14,638 nt of DNA from Candidatus Methylomirabilota bacterium (GTDB lineage: Bacteria > Methylomirabilota > Methylomirabilia > Rokubacteriales > CSP1-6). The position numbers and the translations under genes were made by a program. Below, piece by piece: positions 2,981-14,638 of the stretch; within the stretch, counting starts at the first letter, position 1, and every line of letters begins with the position of its first letter. The stretch is from NCBI GenBank assembly GCA_046726415.1, contig JBKPAK010000152.1:1-14638 (forward strand). The letters run 5' to 3'. The notes under the pieces are model-generated. The model was not told the DNA's origin. It saw nothing but the letters and a program-made list of their open reading frames with translations, and did not search any database.

Positions 2981-4146
2981 AGGATGGTGCGCCGCTCGCA
3001 GGGATCACGGTCCTCGACTTCTCGCAGGTCGAGATGGGGCCGTGCGCGACGCAGGTGCTGGGCGACTTCGGCGCCGACGTCATCAAGATCGAACGACCGG
3101 GCGCCGGGGATCTCGCGCGCGTGCACATGAAGCACGCGAGCGGCGAGAGCGCGGTCTTCTGGAGCCTGAATCGCAATAAGCGGAGCGTCGCCCTCGACGT
3201 CCGCTCGCCCCGTGGCCGCGAGGTCATCCACCGTCTCGCCCGCTCGGCCGACGTCCTGGTGCACAACTTCCGCCCGGGCACGATGGAGCGGCTGGGCTTC
3301 GGCCCCGCGGAGCTGCGCGCCATCAACCCGCGCCTGATCTACGCCTTCGGCAGCGGGTACGGGCCCACCGGTCCCTACCGCGACAAAGGCGGTCAGGACG
3401 TGCTCGCGCAGGCGCTGAGCGGGATCGCCTCGCGCCGGGCGGATCCCGGCGCGCCGCCTGAACCCTGCGCGACACCCATCGCCGACTTCACCGGGGGGAT
3501 GCTGCTCGTGCAGGCCATTCTCCTGGCGCTGCTCGCGCGCGAACGCACCGGCCAGGGGCAGGTCGTCCACGTCTCCCTGCTGGACGGCATGCTGGCCATG
3601 CAGCTTCAGGAGGCCTCCGCCTGGCTGAATCTCGGCCAGCGCCTGAACTGGGGCGCCTTTCCCTTGTCCGGCACGTTCCAAACGATCGACGGGTACGTCG
3701 TCATGGTGGGCGCCTTCAAGGCGAATCCGCTCCAGGAGATCTGCCGGGGCCTGGGCATCGAGGACCTCTCGGCCGACCCCCGCTACGCGACGCACGAGAC
3801 GCAGGTCGCCCATCGCGACGATCTGCAGGCCCGGTGGCACCAGGAGTTCGGCCGACGGACGACGAAGCAGGTCATCGACGCCCTCGAGTCCGTGGACATC
3901 CTGTGCGCCCCGGTGAACACCATCGAGGCCGCGCTGGCCGATCCTCAGGTGGCGACCAACGAGATGGTCCTCGAGATGCGCCATCCCGACGCGGGAACGA
4001 TCAGGACGGTCGGGATCCCCGTGAAGCTGGAGAGCACGCCCGGCTCCGTCCGCCGGCCGCCGCCGCGTCTCGGAGAACACACGCACGAGGTCCTGGCCGA
4101 GCTGGGGTTCTCCCGAGAGGAGATTGCCGAGATGGCGTCCGGGTAG
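2965..4146 (+). CDS. CoA-transferase family III (CaiB/BaiF/Frc-like)
   Basis: PLAGITVLDFS, LGDFGADVIKIERPGAGD, NRNKRSVALD, NFRPG, IADFTGG (catalytic Asp), PPRLGEHT. Overlaps the crotonase stop. Confidence 0.95.
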   Translation: MVGSLKDGAPLAGITVLDFSQVEMGPCATQVLGDFGADVIKIERPGAGDLARVHMKHASGESAVFWSLNRNKRSVALDVRSPRGREVIHRLARSADVLVHNFRPGTMERLGFGPAELRAINPRLIYAFGSGYGPTGPYRDKGGQDVLAQALSGIASRRADPGAPPEPCATPIADFTGGMLLVQAILLALLARERTGQGQVVHVSLLDGMLAMQLQEASAWLNLGQRLNWGAFPLSGTFQTIDGYVVMVGAFKANPLQEICRGLGIEDLSADPRYATHETQVAHRDDLQARWHQEFGRRTTKQVIDALESVDILCAPVNTIEAALADPQVATNEMVLEMRHPDAGTIRTVGIPVKLESTPGSVRRPPPRLGEHTHEVLAELGFSREEIAEMASG

Positions 4147-4295
4147 AGCGCCTATTCAGCCTCGGCCTTTCCCCCGCCGCGGGCGCGGAGCCTGGGTTCT
4201 TCGTCATGATCTTCGCCGGCCTCTCCTACCCGGAGACCTGGAATACGGAGCGAAGGACCGGCTGATTGACGTTCCCTACTGAGCGGCCCTGCCGG

Positions 4296-4685
4296 TCAGG
4301 CGAGCGTCACGCGAAGGGCCACCGGCACGCTCAGCGCGCGACTGATGCGACAGGTTTCGGCCGCCTCTCTGAGCTTCGCCAACTGCGCGGGGTCGAGGGC
4401 GCCGTCCAGGATCAGCTCGGCATCGATGCCGATGATGCGCCCCTGGGCTTCCGTCGCCGCCAGGCGGGCCTCGAGGTGGCGGAGCGGCCACTGCTGGCGT
4501 TCGGCGAACCGCCGAACGTTCGAGAGTTTTCAGGCGCCGATGGCGCCGAGCAGCATCTCGGCCGGCGATGGGCCCTCGTCACCGCCCCCGGCCTCCGGCG
4601 GCGCGTCCAGCACCACCCGATGGGGCCCGATCACCGCTTCGGCCTTCATTCCCACCACCCACTGCACGGTCACCGCCCTCGCCAT
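4296..4685 (-). CDS. OsmC/Ohr-like peroxiredoxin-family protein, probable selenoprotein (Sec52 encoded by UGA)
   Basis: Manual translation gives MARAVTVQWVVGMKAEAVIGPHRVVLDAPPEAGGGDEGPSPAEMLLGAIGA-UGA-KLSNVRRFAERQQWPLRHLEARLAATEAQGRIIGIDAELILDGALDPAQLAKLREAAETCRISRALSVPVALRVTLA* (129 aa). The DxPxxxGGxDxGPSPxEMLLGAxGA(C) motif and a second Cys (C112) are OsmC hallmarks. RBS AGGGGG lies 9 nt upstream of the ATG. Confidence 0.88.
4498..4518 (-). promoter_or_regulatory. Bacterial SECIS-like hairpin
   Basis: The minus-strand mRNA reads UGA-AAACUCUCGAA-CGUUCGGCG-GUU-CGCCGAACG: a perfect 9-bp stem starting 11 nt after the UGA (4530-4532), with an apical loop beginning GU. Confidence 0.78.
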
Positions 4686-4888
4686 AGCGCGCATCCCCCT
4701 GGTGAGCGGCTCTGCGACATGGTTGGCTCCCTGTTGACGGCGGCCCCATCTTCTCCGTCCGCGTTCCTTCCGGCTCAGGATTCTACGTGAGGACGTGGGG
4801 GGCGAGGAAGCCGAAGCATCGGGGTCGAGGCCTATCGTGAGGCGCTGCCAAGAGCGGCGCCCGAGCGGCTGGGCGCGGCGGCGCTATA

Positions 4889-5167
4889 GTGGGGCGGCGG
4901 AACTCGGCGCATGTGGGCCTGCGGGAGATTCGCGAGGCCGCGCGCTGTCCCGTCCTGAGCATGATCGACGTTACGATCGACGACGTCGTGCGCCGGAAAT
5001 GCCGGCGCGTCGGCGTGCTCGGGTTCAACGGCGCGGCGCCACCCTACGTCGACGCGCTCCGGCGGCGCGGCATCGGTTGGGAGGGCATCGACGCGACGTC
5101 GCAGGCGGCCGTCGACTACGACGCGGAGGCCGCGGACGCCGCCGTCGCCATGGGAGGCCGCGCATGA
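4889..5167 (+). pseudogene. Internal fragment of an aspartate/glutamate racemase-family gene
   Basis: NSAHVGLREIREAARCPVLSMIDVTIDDVVRRKCRRVGVLG resembles the racemase segment (C)NTAH...IPVLSMI...RVGVLG. The N-terminus, the first catalytic Cys and the C-terminal GCTE motif are absent. Confidence 0.65.
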
Positions 5168-5257
5168 ACGAGAACGCGTGTCGCGCCCGTGCCGAGCGCG
5201 GCGCGGAGGTTGACGAGGCGTCGTTTCATGGGGCGGGTCAGCTTCGGGACGGGGGCG

Positions 5258-5317
5258 GCATAACAGCAGGCTTGAGCGGACCGGCTCGACGCCGGCCGCT
5301 CAGCCTGATCGTTCGGT
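5258..5317 (+). mobile_element. Integron cassette recombination site (attC, 60 bp), solo
   Basis: R'' GCATAAC - 5 nt - L'' GCTTGAGC - GGAC CGGC TCGAC GCCG GCC - L' GCTCAGC - 6 nt - R' GTTCGGT. It folds into a hairpin with two extrahelical bases and has canonical attC box spacing. Confidence 0.82.
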
Positions 5318-5511
5318 ACACAGACGAAGCACCGCCGCGTAGCGGGCGGCGGCCGTCGACCGCGTCAATGAGTATGAACGAGGACAGGAGATCGGCAAGA
5401 TGCTGGACCAGCCTTGGCAAAGCCCACGGGGTGTGAACGCTTGACACGGATCCACGCCGACGACCGCCGACCGCCACAGGGCCGCCCTCCGCCCCGCTCA
5501 GTAGGCGGCCT

Positions 5512-8824: not shown

Positions 8825-9430
8825 TCAAGCGGCCTTCAGCTTTGTGACCGCGGCGCCTAACCCGAAGGCCACCGCGAGGTAGAAGAACGACAAACCGAGG
8901 AGCACAGCCACCGTGTAGCGCAGCCACGCACGCTCCATCACCTGCGCACCGAATTTCCAGAGGATGAAGGCGGCCGCCACCGTGAGCGGCAGGGTGTAGA
9001 GGGCGGCGAACTCCTTGAACTCGAAGAAAATGCGGTGGATCTCCGGCGCCGTCGCCAGGAAGTATGAGCGCGGGCTGTCGGGCGTCTTGGCGCGGTAGTA
9101 GATGTAGAGCCAGTTCCCGAAGCCGATGGCGATCAGCGCGAACGTCGCCGAGACCGTCGCGAGAAGCTGCAGGTCCGCGAACGCGCGGATGCGCCCCGTC
9201 ATCAGCCGCCATCCTAGGTAGAGGCCGATGGTGCCGACGAACAGGTAGAGGAACGCCGCCATGCCGTGGAAGGCCGCCGGGACAGCGCCGCCTCCCGCGC
9301 CGAGCAGCTTCGCAACCGGTGCCGTCATCGCCGTGAACGCGAGGGCGCTCGCGATGAGGATCACAACGACGGCGGCGAGTGAGGCTGTCGAGGCCTCCCT
9401 CAGGTCATGGGTGTCGTGCACTACGCTCAT
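8825..9430 (-). CDS. Uncharacterised integral membrane protein (201 aa, about 5 TM)
   Basis: AGGAAGGAG RBS; five hydrophobic stretches; motifs FHGMAA, GNWLYIYYR and EIHRIFFEFKEF. Confidence 0.85.
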   Translation of the reverse strand: MSVVHDTHDLREASTASLAAVVVILIASALAFTAMTAPVAKLLGAGGGAVPAAFHGMAAFLYLFVGTIGLYLGWRLMTGRIRAFADLQLLATVSATFALIAIGFGNWLYIYYRAKTPDSPRSYFLATAPEIHRIFFEFKEFAALYTLPLTVAAAFILWKFGAQVMERAWLRYTVAVLLGLSFFYLAVAFGLGAAVTKLKAA

Positions 9431-9490
9431 CGTTCTTCTCCTTCCTGCCGCGCACGGCGCGCGAGCATCTGGACATCGAAGCTGCTTCAG

Positions 9491-9947
9491 TCAGCGCCAA
9501 CTGAGCACGACGCGGCGATCCCACTCGCCGGGACGCACGAGCATTACCGCCCCGGACGCTCTGCGGAGCAGCTGCTCCGGCACGCTGCTGCGAAGCACGT
9601 GGCAGAGGCCGCTGCTCCGGCCGGTCGCCATGGCGATAAGATCGGCCGCGAACAGGTCCGCCTCACGTAGGATCTCAGGCACCGGATCGCCGAACCGCAC
9701 CGCGCACTCGACGGGATACCCTCGAGCTGAAGCTCGACCGTGCGCAGATAGTTTCCATCGCGTCGACTTCGACCCATGCCATTTCTTGGTCCGCGTACGA
9801 CAACACGCGACCATCGTCGTCCACGACGGGCTCGGGGACCGCCGCGACGTGCAGGAGCTTGACCGACGCGCCGGCGTCGCGCGCGAGCAGCACTACCGCC
9901 TCCGATTCGAGCGTTCGTTCCAGCGGGACTAGAATGCGCTTCGCCAT
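9491..9947 (-). pseudogene. Universal stress protein (Usp), two frameshifts
   Basis: AAGGAG RBS. MAKRILVPLE...LLHV (frame 1), YLRTVELQLEGI (frame 2), VECAVRFGDPVPEILREADLFAADLIAMAT...SVPEQLLRRA..VMLVR (frame 3). Shifts near 9752-9754 and 9713-9715. Confidence 0.85.
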
Positions 9948-9977
9948 GGCGTTTCTCCTTATCCTCCCGCGCGTGGC

Positions 9978-10380
9978 CTACGCGGCGTCGACGCGGATCG
10001 CGGTTCCCGCCGCGGCCTGCGGTTTTCGGCATGGTGACCGTCAGCACACCGTTCTTGAAGGCGGCGGTCACCTTCGTCTCGTCAACGGCCACCGGCAGCC
10101 GCACGGCGCGCTCGAAGCGTCCGTACACGCGCTCGGCGTTGTAATGGCGCCCATCCTTTCCCGGCGTCTCTTCCTTCTTCTCGCCGGCGATCGTGAGGAC
10201 GTCGTCCTTCACCTCGACTCGCATGGCGGCGGCTCGATCCCTGGTGTCGACGATGTCCGTCCGCGGCCACCAGTTACCGCGCGCGGGAGCCTCCGGACCG
10301 AAGTCCATGAACCGCTCGAAGAAACGGTGCATCTCCCGCGGAAGACGCACCGGCGTGTCGAACAGTGTGAGGGCACGCAT
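9978..10380 (-). pseudogene. Small heat-shock protein Hsp20, internal deletion plus C-terminal frameshift
   Basis: GGAGGAGG RBS. WWPRTDIVDTRD-[AELPG strand missing]-RVEVKDDVLTIAGEK...ERVYGRFERAVRLP..VDETKVTAAFKNGVLTVTMPK. The tail AAAGTAIRVDAA* (IxV motif) is in a shifted frame ending at TAG 9978-9980. Confidence 0.85.
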
Positions 10381-10426
10381 GACGCCTCCTCCCTTCCCCC
10401 GTGGCGCGAACGCCGCCCTGTTAGGG

Positions 10427-10442
10427 AGCAACGTCGTTGCCA
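10427..10442 (-). promoter_or_regulatory. sigma54 -24/-12 promoter upstream of hsp20
   Basis: Minus strand TGGCAACGACGTTGCT versus consensus TGGCAC-N5-TTGCW; 46 nt upstream of the ATG. Confidence 0.72.
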
Positions 10443-10542
10443 CAGCAGACACCCGTAATCGCGCGGAGTTGCGAGGCGCGCCGGCGGCTTCGGTGTGGCA
10501 GCCACGCCTCGCGTGGGGCGCGAGGGCCACGGAAAGTGGCGC

Positions 10543-10914
10543 TCAGCGCGTGAGGCGCGGACGCGCGCGGCGAGGTCGGTGGCCTGGAACGGCCTGGCGT
10601 AGAACGCGGTCGCGCCCGCATTGAGCGCCGCATCACGGGCGGCCGCCGACGCGAAGCGCCAGACACCACGATCGCCGGCGTCGGCGGCGTGGCGCTGCGC
10701 GCACCACGTCGAGGCCGTCTCCGTCTGGCAGGCGTTCGTCCGCGATCACGAGCGCGAACGCCTCGCGCGCAAGCGCGGCGAGCGCCTCGCTCCGCGTGGC
10801 CGCTTCGACGACACGGAAGCCGTCGCGCGAGAGCAGCCGGCGAGATGTGGACAGGAAATCACTCTCGTCGTCGACGACGAGGATGCTCGACGCGACGAGG
10901 ATGCTCGAGGTCAT
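10543..10914 (-). pseudogene. Single-domain response regulator receiver, multiply frameshifted
   Basis: ILVVDDE...LVIADERLPDGDGLDVV; then ATPPTPAIVVSG in a second frame; then FASAAARDAALNAGATAFYARPF in a third. The 3' end is approximate. Confidence 0.8.
10875..10908. repeat. Tandem duplication with 18-bp period (CGACGAGGATGCTCGA x2) at the start of the receiver gene
   Basis: Directly visible; it produces SSILVA-SSILVV. Confidence 0.9.
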
Positions 10915-10923
10915 ACCGGCACC

Positions 10924-11343
10924 TCAGATCCCAGCCGCTTCTCCCGCGACGAAGGCACGGAGGAAGTCGGTCTCGGTGACGATGCCGACCAGGAGGCCGT
11001 TCTCGACCACGGGGAGGGCCCTGATCTGCTCCGCGATCAGAAGGCGGGCCGCCTCGCGCGCGTCGCGATCGGGCTCGACGACGATGACGGTCTGGGTCAT
11101 CACGTCGCCGACAGTGAGCTTCGCGAGCAGGTAGTTCAGCTCCCAGACGGACAGCGTCGTCGCGAGCGACGCAAGATTGAGCCGGATGTCGCGATCGGTC
11201 ACCATTCCAAGGACGTGCCGACCAGCGTCGACGACGGGGAGGTGGCGGATGCGTTTCTCTTGCATGAGACGGCAGGCCTCGACGACGGATGCCTCCGGCT
11301 CGATGGTGACGACGGCACCGGTGCGCAGATCCTTCACGCGCAT
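10924..11343 (-). CDS. CBS-pair protein (AcuB-like)
   Basis: GGAGG RBS, ATG at 11343. IRHLPVVD..GMVTDRDI, TTLSVWELNYLLAKLTVGDVMT, LPVVENGLLVGIVTETDFL. Confidence 0.9.
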   Translation of the reverse strand: MRVKDLRTGAVVTIEPEASVVEACRLMQEKRIRHLPVVDAGRHVLGMVTDRDIRLNLASLATTLSVWELNYLLAKLTVGDVMTQTVIVVEPDRDAREAARLLIAEQIRALPVVENGLLVGIVTETDFLRAFVAGEAAGI

Positions 11344-11486
11344 GATTGCCTCCGTCGTCGCGCGACCTGCTCCAGGTGGTCCGCGAGCTGCACGACCTGC
11401 TCGATCGCCGTCCATTCCGTGAGGCCGTGGTGAAGCACCACACGGGTAAGGTCGCATGCATTTCGATGGGCTGCCACGGATCCCGA

Positions 11487-11834
11487 TCAGTGCTGCGTAG
11501 CGAGAAAAGCAGCAAGGGCGGTGACCTCGGCGGGCGTGAGCTCGAGCTTGGGCATGTGTGCGTTCGGCTTTTGCGACGCCGGATCGCTGAGCCAGCGGAC
11601 CAGGTCACCCTCGGCATACTTGGCGCCGACGCGCGACAGGTTGGGACCGATCGGGGTGCCAAGAGCACCGATCCGGTGGCAGCCGTAGCAGCCGTGCTCC
11701 ATGAAGAGACGCGCGCCTGTTGTCACGGCGGCGCGATCCTGAGCCCGCGCGACCCAGGCCACGCCGAGTCCGGCGGGGAGCGTAAAGCTGAGTGCGATGC
11801 CGAGAGTCGTCAGGAGCACTGTCCGGTTACGCAT
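11487..11834 (-). CDS. Monoheme class I cytochrome c, exported or membrane-anchored
   Basis: N-terminal signal/TM segment, CYGCH heme motif, GPNL, distal HMP Met. The alternative GTG start at 11864 overlaps the sigma54 box. Confidence 0.9.
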   Translation of the reverse strand: MRNRTVLLTTLGIALSFTLPAGLGVAWVARAQDRAAVTTGARLFMEHGCYGCHRIGALGTPIGPNLSRVGAKYAEGDLVRWLSDPASQKPNAHMPKLELTPAEVTALAAFLATQH

Positions 11835-11847
11835 GACCGGACGGACA

Positions 11848-11863
11848 CGCAATGTCGCTGCCA
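11848..11863 (-). promoter_or_regulatory. sigma54 -24/-12 promoter upstream of cytochrome c
   Basis: Minus strand TGGCAGCGACATTGCG (GG-N10-GC). Confidence 0.6.
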
Positions 11864-12240
11864 CGACTCACTCGCGCCAAGGCCGTCCGATTTGCGTGCG
11901 ATGACCGCACGGTGGCCACAAGAGCCATGTCCTGAGCTCGCCGCAGTGGGTCACAGATGGGGCGGGCTGTTGACCCCTCAAACTTGGACCCCTGATACCG
12001 TCGAGGACGATCCACTTGAGATGACGGACCGAGATGAAGGCGACCCTTGGGAGGGTTGCGAGGTCCAGTCCTCCGAACGCTGTCCAGCCATAGTGTTCGT
12101 CTCGCGCAAAAAGGCCCCTGATCAGCAGGTTCCGGTCGAGTTGACGGACTGCGGGGCATGGATGTCCCACCGGGACCCGCTTGCCCCGGCCCAGTGTTCC
12201 GCCTGCTCCACTAACTCCCCATCATCACGCCCCTCGGGCG

Positions 12241-12256: not shown

Positions 12257-12467
12257 CCAAGCGATGGCGGAACGCCGCGACGGATGGACTGACTTGAGCA
12301 TGGGGACGACGCCATGAGGCAACGCCGGGTGATTCGGGATCTTGTGGCTTCTTGGCCGGCGGTGTGTTGGGCGCGCAGGCCATCGCAGTGAGAATTGTGT
12401 GCAGCTCCTCCGGAGCGTGCGCGCTGTCAACGCGGTTTTGTCCGGCCATGATCGCCGGTGCCAAGCA

Positions 12468-13049
12468 GTGAGTTGGGCGATTTGGATCACCGGCCTGCCC
12501 GGAAGCGGCAAGAGCACCATCACCCAGCAGGTCGTTGCCGCTTTGCAGGGATGGGGTGAGCGCGTCGCCGTTCTGGAGGCAAGGGCTTTTGCCGCCGCCC
12601 TCGTGCCGGACCGGGCTCCATCGCCACACGAACTGGACCTGATCTATCGTGGCCTCGTCCACACCGCATCGGTCCTTACCCAGGCCGGCGTACCCGTCAT
12701 CGTGGACGCCACCGCGCACCGCCGCGCTTGGCGTGACCTCGCGCGCGAGACCATTGCAGATTTCGCCGAGGTTCAGCTCACCTGCCCTGAGGCGATCTGC
12801 GGGGCGCGGGAACAAGCCGTTCGCTGGCGAGGCGTCCCGCGCATTGGTCAGGGGACGGCGGCACCGTCCGAGCCCGCTGTCGTCCTCGATTACGAGTATT
12901 CCCTGCGTGCCGAGCTGACTATCAACACCGAGGCCCAGCACGTGTGGACTTCCGTGGCCGATGTGCTTCTCCTCGTAGAACGGCTCCGCCGCAGCGCGCG
13001 CCGCACCTCTGATGCGGAGGACCCCCCAAACGGGTCAGCGATCTCATGA
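12468..13049 (+). CDS. Adenylylsulfate kinase-like P-loop kinase
   Basis: WAIWITGLPGSGKST Walker A, VPVIVDATAHRRAWRDLAR, FAEVQLTCP..C..RE, YE...ELTINT. GTG at 12468 is the inferred start within ORF 12342-13049. Confidence 0.8.
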   Translation: MSWAIWITGLPGSGKSTITQQVVAALQGWGERVAVLEARAFAAALVPDRAPSPHELDLIYRGLVHTASVLTQAGVPVIVDATAHRRAWRDLARETIADFAEVQLTCPEAICGAREQAVRWRGVPRIGQGTAAPSEPAVVLDYEYSLRAELTINTEAQHVWTSVADVLLLVERLRRSARRTSDAEDPPNGSAIS

Positions 13050-13228: not shown

Positions 13229-13718
13229 CCCCCGAGCGCAGACCAGCGACGACGATCTACCTGTACGAGCTGGCCTGGATCCTGCCGAGCATCGCCATCC
13301 CCGTGGGCATGCTCGTCGCGCTCACCGTGACCGCCTTCGGCGCCGGCATCCACCTGCCCGGCGTGGCCGGGCGAGTCAACCCCCAGGCAGTCGCGCAGAC
13401 GCCACCCTTCGATGACCCCAGGGTGGTCCAGGTCGCGCCCGGCCGCTATGAGGTGCGCATGACGGCGCAGATCTGGGCGTTCGCCCCCCGGGAGTCCGGC
13501 GGGCTCGCGGGTGCACTTCACGGGCACCAGCAAGGACGTGGTCCATGGGCTCTTCGTTCCGGGGGACCGACCTCAACGTGATGTTGCTGCCGGGCCAGAT
13601 CGCGCACGTCGAGGCCCGCTTCGACACACCGGGCGAGTATCCGATCATCTGCCACGAGTACTGCGGCATCGCTCACCACACAATGGCGGGCAAGATTATC
13701 GTGGAGCCGCGCCCATGA
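13225..13718 (+). pseudogene. cbaB: ba3-type cytochrome c oxidase subunit II (CuA), two frameshifts in this sequence
   Basis: IYLYELAW TM...PPFDDP...WAFAPRE | PAGSRVHFTGTSKDVVHGLFVP | TDLNVMLLPGQI...CHEYCGIAHHTM. Shifts near 13491-13496 and at the G5 run 13561-13565. Confidence 0.88.
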
Positions 13719-14638
13719 CGCCCGCCCCCGTTCCCACCGACCCTCGCAGCAGCGGTTTCGAGCCCGACGGACGTCTGGCCGGCGCCTACGTGGCCGTGGG
13801 GCTCGTCGCCCTCTTTGGCGGCATGGTCACCGGGCTCCTGCAAGCGCTCACGCTCGCGGGCGTCCATATCCCGGCGCACTTCCTGGTGCAGTCCTACTAC
13901 CACAGCGTCAGCCTGCACGGCGTGCTGAACGTGCTGGTGTGGACGACGTTCTTCATCTGCGGCTTCGTTCCTTTCATCGCCTCGCGCTCCCTCGGCACAC
14001 CTCTCGTGCAGGCTCTTGGCTGGGCGACCTTCTGGGTCATGATCACGGGCCTCCTGGCGGCGATCCCCCTCGTGGCCAATACCGCCACCGTCATGTTCAC
14101 CTTCTATCCGCCGCTCAAGGCCCCCTGGGCGTTCTACGTCGGTCTCACCTTGGTCGTGGCCGGGACCTGGCTGGTGACGCTCAATCTCACGCTCACGTGG
14201 CGGCGCTGGCGTGCCACTCATCCCGACGCCCGCACCCCGCTGGCAGCGTTCATGTCGCTTATCACCTTCGTGATGTGGACGATCGCCTCACTGGGCATCG
14301 CCGCCGAGATGCTGTTCCTCCTCATCCCGTGGTCCCTGGGTCTGGTCGGAACCACGGACGCGCTCCTTGCCCGCACGCTGTTCTGGTTTACCGGGCACCC
14401 CATCGTGTACTTCTGGCTGCTGCCCGCCTACATCTCCTGGTACACGCTGGTGCCGCGCCAGGCGGGCGGTAAGCTCTTCAGCGATCCGCTGGCCCGGACA
14501 TCGTTCATCCTGTTCCTGGTGTTGTCGACGCCACTCGGCCTGCACCATCAGTTTACCGATCCCGGTCTCCACCAGGGCTGGAAGCTGGTCCACGCCTTCC
14601 TGACGTTCGCCGTCTTCTTCCCGAGCCTGCTCACGTTC
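13715..14638 (+). CDS. cbaA: ba3-type (B-family) heme-copper oxidase subunit I, partial (runs off the window)
   Basis: ATGA overlap with cbaB; 308 open codons. YYHSVSLHGVLN (H68), TFYPPL, FWFTGHPIVYFWLLPAYISWY (H228, Y232), GLHHQFTDP (H277/H278), PSLLT. Confidence 0.95.
   Translation, partial: MTPAPVPTDPRSSGFEPDGRLAGAYVAVGLVALFGGMVTGLLQALTLAGVHIPAHFLVQSYYHSVSLHGVLNVLVWTTFFICGFVPFIASRSLGTPLVQALGWATFWVMITGLLAAIPLVANTATVMFTFYPPLKAPWAFYVGLTLVVAGTWLVTLNLTLTWRRWRATHPDARTPLAAFMSLITFVMWTIASLGIAAEMLFLLIPWSLGLVGTTDALLARTLFWFTGHPIVYFWLLPAYISWYTLVPRQAGGKLFSDPLARTSFILFLVLSTPLGLHHQFTDPGLHQGWKLVHAFLTFAVFFPSLLTF

Follow-up and report, generated by a model that had tools for sequence, protein, structure and literature searches.

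Selenocysteine (Sec)-containing proteins of the OsmC superfamily have been in print since 2005, when an "OsmC-like protein" (COG1765, motif UxxT) was reported among 15 new selenoprotein families from the Sargasso Sea, together with a predicted selenocysteine insertion sequence (SECIS) (Zhang, Fomenko and Gladyshev 2005, PMC1088965). The family was relisted in the 2008 Global Ocean Sampling (GOS) study (PMC2398784) and in reviews of 2022 and 2026 (PMC9312934, PMC13188914). The phylum Methylomirabilota/Rokubacteria is itself reported to be rich in selenoproteins, and one Methylomirabilota metagenome-assembled genome (MAG) is predicted to carry 63 selenoprotein genes (PMC13188914). Here we analyze a 14,638-nt stretch of DNA from a Candidatus Methylomirabilota bacterium (contig JBKPAK010000152.1 of assembly GCA_046726415.1, hereafter the window), in which an earlier note had proposed a hidden selenoprotein gene of the OsmC type on the minus strand, from position 4685 to 4296. 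That note had described OsmC-like selenoproteins as already predicted, which agrees with the published record.

We consider it about 90% probable that 4685..4296 (minus strand) is an intact gene for a 129-residue selenoprotein of the OsmC/Ohr/YhfA superfamily. Its single in-frame UGA codon occupies the position of a conserved cysteine (Cys), a conserved and covarying hairpin follows the UGA, and the genome carries the machinery for Sec decoding; from these observations we infer that selenium is incorporated at residue 52.

The locus shares several properties with the family of Zhang et al. 2005, with which it was compared by description and not by sequence: the PF02566 fold (predicted here), Sec in place of the first conserved Cys, a bacterial SECIS predicted shortly downstream and affiliation with the YhfA-like branch (COG1765/YhfA). 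It differs in that the UxxT motif is replaced by U-K-L-S in the window protein and by U-T-S-[MI]-T in relatives, and in that the host belongs to soil Methylomirabilota/Rokubacteria rather than to marine plankton. Among solved structures, E. coli YhfA (1ml8), 1lql and 2onf are stand-alone proteins like ours and both Cys positions align, whereas they are Cys proteins of unknown function at about 16-22% identity. The closest solved sequence, 9wo1 (400 amino acids, "Osmotically inducible protein C"), shares the active-site helix motif and has a CxxC insertion, as do long-form relatives of the window protein. However, 9wo1 is of the Cys type and has an N-terminal domain fused to its OsmC domain, while the window protein stands alone, lacks the CxxC insertion and has Sec. 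To judge by its length and domain position, 9wo1 probably belongs to the esterase-OsmC fusion family. The thiol peroxidases Ohr and OsmC (E. coli OsmC 1qwi/1nye, Xylella Ohr 1zb9) have the same fold and two-Cys architecture, although their family models score far below cut-off here and their catalytic Arg does not seem to be conserved. The gene is thus not new in kind: at 129 amino acids, with U-K-L-S and no CxxC insertion, it represents a divergent short form of a family whose Sec version prevails throughout this phylum. Our search of the literature on selenocysteine and selenoproteins in Rokubacteria/Methylomirabilota returned nothing on this particular clade.

A reading frame with one in-frame UGA

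Translation of the minus strand from the ATG at 4685-4683 yields 51 residues, a TGA at 4530-4532 (read as U52), another 77 residues and a terminal TGA at 4296-4298. The frame contains no other stop or frame break, so that the internal TGA is its sole lesion-like site. The codon for Cys112, the second conserved and presumably resolving Cys, lies at 4350..4352. The initiating Met aligns with M in 16 of the 18 full-length homologues and with V (GTG) in the other two, and a purine run, AGGGGGA, at 4694..4700 (minus strand), 8 nt 5' of the ATG at 4685, resembles a Shine-Dalgarno sequence on direct reading and may act as one. An alternative start at the ATG at 4694, which would add three residues, finds no support in the homologues. 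The terminator is TAG in six of the 18 full-length relatives and TGA in 12, which identifies the terminal TGA as an ordinary stop.

The earlier note had described this frame as absent from the list of open reading frames (ORFs). This holds for the full frame, but its N-terminal piece (4530..4694, 54 amino acids) is listed; no ORF of at least 50 amino acids is listed in the same frame beyond the TGA at 4530-4532. Long antisense ORFs are to be expected, and carry little meaning, at the G+C content of the window (65-70%). We see hardly any prospect that the region holds two separate small genes, or that the true gene is one of the plus-strand ORFs at 4266-4790 or 4345-4737, whose length is usual for DNA of 70% G+C. 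Searches with the separate pieces and overlapping ORFs of both strands gave no Pfam match at E<=0.01 in any of six cases, whereas the OsmC match described below runs as one stretch over the TGA, and the substitution pattern among relatives suits the minus-strand frame.

Membership in the OsmC superfamily and predicted fold

The read-through product of 129 residues matches the Pfam OsmC model (PF02566) over residues 34-122, with an E value of 1.9e-12 and 47.9 bits (cut-off 27.5). Because this single stretch spans the TGA, the claim that the frame is OsmC-like on both sides of one TGA holds. So does the claim that the TGA falls exactly at the family Cys, that Cys112 is kept and that there is no other lesion. 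Of the two conserved Cys of the OsmC family, the first, presumably peroxidatic, aligns with U52 and the second with C112. Neither column varies among the 18 sequences of alignment A2, and in a profile alignment the two residues match the Cys pair of 9wo1 and 1ml8. A search of the Protein Data Bank (PDB) with the family profile gave 9wo1 as the best match (E 9e-34, to its OsmC domain at residues 270-393), followed by E. coli YhfA (1ml8); the second and third sequence-profile matches are found among 1ml8, 1lql and 2onf. In NCBIfam, the best match of the window protein and of all 13 relatives tested is NF041052, "OsmC-related (seleno)protein", at near full length. The window protein is therefore a member of the OsmC superfamily that comes closest to the YhfA branch and has Sec where the peroxidatic Cys would stand.

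It is also predicted to adopt the OsmC fold. The AlphaFold2 model has a mean predicted local distance difference test (pLDDT) score of 82.9 and a predicted template modeling (pTM) score of 0.76, with weaker values in the N-terminal 40 residues; in the model, U52 lies within a long helix (residues 41-63) and C112 between helices 99-110 and 113-117. When the model was submitted to Foldseek, every one of the best 31 of 62 matches (E<=0.001) was either an OsmC/Ohr-family structure or an OsmC-like structural-genomics entry; 1ml8 (YhfA), 1lql and 2onf came first, with E values of 1.5e-8 to 1.2e-7 and TM scores of about 0.6-0.68. The root-mean-square deviations of these superpositions are high, about 10 A, probably owing to domain-swapped N-terminal strands in a monomer model.

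Conservation of the UGA codon

When 61 related genomes were searched in six frames, 52 matches were obtained, 29 of which have a single TGA and no other stop. We extracted 21 loci at first, comprising 18 full-length loci, two broken copies and one Cys form, and then added 16 regions, for 37 loci in all. In all 18 full-length loci the codon aligned with residue 52 is TGA, at the same alignment column. Across the 37 loci it is TGA in 28 and TGC in seven (the paralogue in the same genome and six distant homologues), and it could not be aligned in the two broken copies. The only stop codon seen at codon 52 is TGA, with no case of TAA or TAG. The occurrence of TGA at the same codon in 28 of 37 loci from other genomes is far beyond chance. 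The Cys/TGA pairs at position 52 that the earlier note had suggested looking for thus exist, and close homologues of the gene carry TGA, not TGC or TGT.

The pattern extends through the phylum. In a survey of 251 genomes, 146 had a match at E<=1e-10; among the 123 listed matches of at least 120 bits, counted by hand, about 105 have one TGA and 18 have none, and 38 weaker matches stand outside this count. The five named public close relatives, labeled Candidatus Methylomirabilota or Rokuibacteriota and in one case Verrucomicrobiia, all have TGA at codon 52. One locus of the alignment (L019, genome G025) and four matches of the phylum count (G135, G104, G094) come from unpublished genomes, and no conclusion rests on them. 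The window gene is thus part of a Sec-dominated family that is widespread in Methylomirabilota/Rokubacteria.

Selection on the protein persists after the UGA, where loss of conservation would have told against the proposal. In six relatives at 69-77% identity, the differences after codon 52 are mostly at third codon positions (for example, 15/11/33 against L017), 15-26 of the 42-45 changed codons there are synonymous, and the pattern upstream of the UGA is similar.

Two short-form copies are visibly broken. One (L034, G008:C27) matches residues 1-52 and loses the frame just before codon 52; the other (L035, G018:C200) matches residues 35-128 and is unalignable around that codon. These may be pseudogenes or assembly errors. 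Another copy, on a contig labeled as a Verrucomicrobiia MAG (L057), is a Sec form with 69% identity and the same hairpin; its presence under another phylum reflects either mis-binning or transfer.

We also looked for the stretch in metagenome and RNA sequencing runs. At least part of it is contained in 20 of the 24 listed runs (19 studies), mainly from soil, with some from rhizosphere and freshwater sediment. In run X2, a soil-metagenome contig of 2238 nt (word depth 42.7) spans 4100-4900 and leaves the TGA at 4530-4532 unchanged, its sole differences being at 4748 and 4829 and an additional C after 4844; as this run may stem from the same campaign as the source, we give its contig modest weight. 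Contigs of runs X6 and X10 cover the stretch in part; one record of X10 (record 2) spans the TGA site and has one unlisted difference near its end, and it was not counted.

These data bear on the possibility that an osmC-like gene of the Cys type acquired the TGA by nonsense mutation, or through an error of sequencing or assembly. A single change from TGC or TGT would suffice, the assembly is fragmented into 352 contigs, and two relatives are broken as described above. However, the same TGA recurs in loci of different genomes and in most of the listed matches across the phylum, X2 as an independent run carries it, the hairpin described below covaries with it, purifying selection continues downstream of it, and no Cys was found at codon 52 in the public close relatives (nine of 34 matches inspected). 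We regard a pseudogene or artefact as very improbable.

A covarying hairpin downstream of the UGA

Within the coding sequence, at 4499..4517 of the minus strand, lies a hairpin with a 7-bp stem (4517-4511 paired with 4505-4499) and the loop GGUUC (4510-4506). It starts 12 nt past the UGA and extends over codons 57-63, its first base being the last position of codon 57. The fdhF element of E. coli needs about 11 nt between the UGA and its minimal upper stem-loop, to which the 12 nt seen here are close. The hairpin alone has a folding energy of -11.6 kcal/mol, and the fold of the 66-nt context (4470-4535) has a z score of -2.57. The published model of bacterial SECIS elements asks for a stem of 4-16 bp, a loop of 3-9 nt with G in its first two positions and then G/U, a distance of 16-37 nt from UGA to loop and a minimum free energy of at most -7.5 kcal/mol (PMC13188914). 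The hairpin at 4499-4517 lies within all four constraints, with 19 nt between UGA and loop and an energy of -11.6 kcal/mol.

In a nucleotide alignment of the 18 sequences (A1), 97.6% of the stem cells are paired and three of the seven pairs show compensatory double changes, each with three pair types. The covariation score was reached in none of 500 column shuffles, and pairing falls to 22-48% in slid controls, in which the partner was moved by 1-3 columns. RNAalifold yields the same helix, and all 18 sequences share the loop residues G30 and U31. The covariation comes at the cost of protein sequence, as the arms encode R-R..E-R in the window and L-L..R-R or A-L..R-R in relatives. In the Cys paralogue of the same genome (L036), the same residues are written in synonymous codons that do not pair (-2.7 kcal/mol), and the hairpin is lost. 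A search of the whole window with Rfam at gathering thresholds gave no match, a result that is uninformative for bacterial SECIS elements.

Selenocysteine machinery and the Cys paralogue

The window is one contig (C152) of a 7.6-Mb assembly of 352 contigs that is 98% complete. The earlier note had held that a genome without selA, selB, selC and selD would speak against it; all four are present. The selD gene (L001, G000:C223:11994-12938) scores 335.6 bits, above the curated cut-off, and has an in-frame TGA of its own at the catalytic Cys/Sec position, which makes selenophosphate synthetase a selenoprotein here as well. On contig C313, selA (591.9 bits) and selB (374.2 bits), both above curated cut-offs, are adjacent, and ARAGORN finds a tRNA-Sec with anticodon tca beside them (32818-32915, complement), so that selB, selA and tRNA-Sec form one cluster (G000:C313:28622-32915, L006 and L008). 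The Cys-type paralogue (G000:C15:16155-16532) encodes 141 amino acids, is 42% identical to the window protein over aligned residues and has a CxxC-containing insertion.

Public annotation of the family

As the earlier note foresaw, standard annotation splits or misses this gene. The public protein set gave 34 matches at E<=1e-10, most of which cover just one side of the UGA, either the 40% of the query that precedes it or the 58-59% that follows it. Among the nine proteins inspected, two end right before the UGA, two start after it, two are frameshifted around it and three are full-length with W at residue 52; none has Cys or Sec there. The three full-length proteins (P0003, P0004 and P0005) are Joint Genome Institute (JGI) entries, apparently short contigs translated with a code in which TGA is Trp.

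Taken at face value, the W at residue 52 in these translations would suit a UGA that is reassigned or read through as a standard amino acid (Trp in code 4, Gly in code 25, or near-cognate suppression). However, TGA is a stop in these genomes, as the terminal TGA of the gene itself aligns with TAG in six of the 18 relatives, and Pfam-supported neighbors terminate at TGA under table 11. All homologues without TGA have Cys at codon 52 and not Trp or Gly, and the genome has both a complete Sec machinery and a SECIS-type hairpin. Insertion of a standard amino acid is therefore highly unlikely.

Proposed mechanism and its substrate

We propose that, when the ribosome reaches UGA52, the 7-bp hairpin 12 nt downstream, with its G-U apical loop, would recruit SelB-GTP-Sec-tRNA(Sec), and UGA52 would be decoded as selenocysteine. 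U52 and C112 would then act as the peroxidatic and resolving positions of OsmC/Ohr: U52 would attack an oxidized substrate, most plausibly a hydroperoxide; C112 would resolve the resulting selenenic acid to a selenenylsulfide; and an external dithiol would reduce the U52-C112 selenenylsulfide. The model for this scheme is the lipoyl-dependent two-Cys peroxidase cycle described for Ohr/OsmC (PMC8945050). A selenol/thiol redox cycle is the most likely chemistry of the window protein, and we give even odds that the substrate is a hydroperoxide. The claim of a 129-residue Sec/Cys peroxidase thus divides: its selenoprotein part is well supported, and its peroxidase part follows from family membership, the nearest branch being YhfA.

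Several observations weigh against parts of this reading. The window protein scores 47.0 bits against NF041052, below the cut-off of 95 bits; the 13 relatives score 46-69 bits and are likewise all below it, which places this clade, with 14 of 14 proteins under the cut-off, outside the curated family. The Ohr model TIGR03561 gives 13 bits against a cut-off of 88.85, and in the NCBIfam scan TIGR03562 is not listed for the window protein. Inspection of the A2 sequences by eye found R23 in 13 of 18 sequences and no invariant Arg in the N-terminal strands. Proteins of the YhfA class are said to retain both Cys but to have neither the Arg nor the Glu of Ohr/OsmC, and to be biochemically uninvestigated (PMC8945050). 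Full-length EstRM, an esterase-OsmC fusion of R. marinus, is reported to have shown no significant peroxidase activity with H2O2 or cumene hydroperoxide in a FOX (ferrous oxidation-xylenol orange) assay (PMC5113044). The sole RNA run found (X20) covers 4769-4900, which lies outside the gene. A tblastn search of seven window neighbors against 22 related loci returned only two CoA-transferase paralogues at 38% identity, so that the neighborhood is not conserved and offers no functional hint. Finally, a GC-rich hairpin also forms at the position of the window hairpin in two of the seven Cys-form homologues (-8.3 and -9.2 kcal/mol), which makes folding energy by itself a weak, non-discriminating criterion and leaves covariation as the one that discriminates.

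The observations on family models and activity bring in a different reading, in which the gene encodes a genuine selenoprotein that is not a peroxidase. U52 and C112 would then serve another redox reaction, such as reducing a partner protein's disulfide or selenenylsulfide, or would act on a small species of sulfur, selenium or metal; the same may hold for the YhfA branch. The nearest stand-alone solved relative, YhfA (1ml8), belongs to a class that is described as having no known activity (PMC8945050), and the OsmC domain of the esterase fusion family, presumably the type of 9wo1, is reported as peroxidase-inactive (PMC5113044). The Ohr and OsmC models of NCBIfam lie far under their cut-offs, and the long-form relatives have the extra CxxC insertion; an extra CxxC is also reported for some OsmC domains (PMC5113044). 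Yet both Cys positions of the peroxidases are retained, the first of them upgraded to Sec, and an acidic residue stands nine positions before U52 (position 43) in 18 of 18 A2 sequences, again as read by eye. Moreover, the single negative assay concerned a fusion protein from another phylum under one reductant regime. We judge a non-peroxidase selenoprotein to have a little under an even chance.

A possible Sec-only subfamily

The short form (127-133 amino acids, U-K/R/T-L/I-S/M, no CxxC insertion) is represented by the window protein and loci L017-L019 and L053-L057. Tentatively, and with more doubt than confidence, it could be a Sec-only subfamily, largely confined to Methylomirabilota/Rokubacteria and not captured by the curated NCBIfam selenoprotein model, that functions in the same cell as the Cys-type long-form paralogue. 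We saw no Cys version closer than about 42% identity.

Gene neighborhood and the rest of the window

The selenoprotein gene forms a unit of its own. On one side lies a convergent CoA-transferase operon (ABC permease, FAD oxidoreductase, enoyl-CoA hydratase and CoA-transferase), on the other a divergent racemase-like remnant. A scan of 4100-4900 found no promoter-like site and one terminator-like site, on the plus strand at 4180-4194, behind the convergent CoA-transferase gene.

The racemase-like region lies at 4795-5436 (plus strand), where, especially at 4889-5167, an ORF of 92 amino acids matches positions 76-134 of the 211 positions of the Pfam Asp/Glu/hydantoin racemase model (E 4.8e-9). 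It is overlapped by an ORF of 213 amino acids in another frame that has no Pfam match, and an extra C after 4844 is found in two runs, in the DNA contig of X2 and the RNA contig of X20. The region may thus be what is left of a gene, or the assembly may contain an indel or frameshift here.

Among 58 of the 86 read-through candidates in the window (those from about position 4270 on), none has a Pfam domain across a TGA. One candidate, at 10636-11604 (minus strand), joins a CBS-pair protein and a response-regulator receiver domain in the same frame with a TGA at 10924-10926 between them; no domain spans this TGA, and we read the candidate as two adjacent genes. Pfam places genes related to stress and respiration at 8828-9892, 9544-10530 and 11337-11867 (minus strand) and at 12342-13049 and 13511-14638 (plus strand), their families being a Usp domain, Hsp20, cytochrome c, an APS-kinase-like P-loop protein and haem-copper oxidase subunit I. 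No Pfam match was obtained for several ORFs between 6086 and 9500.

Significance for the family and the phylum

This gene leaves knowledge of Sec decoding, and of the existence of OsmC-like selenoproteins, unchanged. What it provides is a clear case, verified by comparison, of a selenoprotein gene miscalled in public data, in a clade for which the curated NCBIfam model meant to rescue such genes fails its cut-off. Correcting this would improve the annotation of Methylomirabilota, a soil phylum reported to have the largest predicted bacterial selenoproteome (PMC13188914). For the protein itself, the Sec/Cys pair marks residue 52 as the redox-active center of a YhfA-type OsmC protein. If the short form is indeed a Sec-only subfamily, it would be a distinct, obligately selenium-dependent YhfA-type enzyme, for which a substrate other than a hydroperoxide is conceivable, and would offer a handle on the function of the whole YhfA branch.

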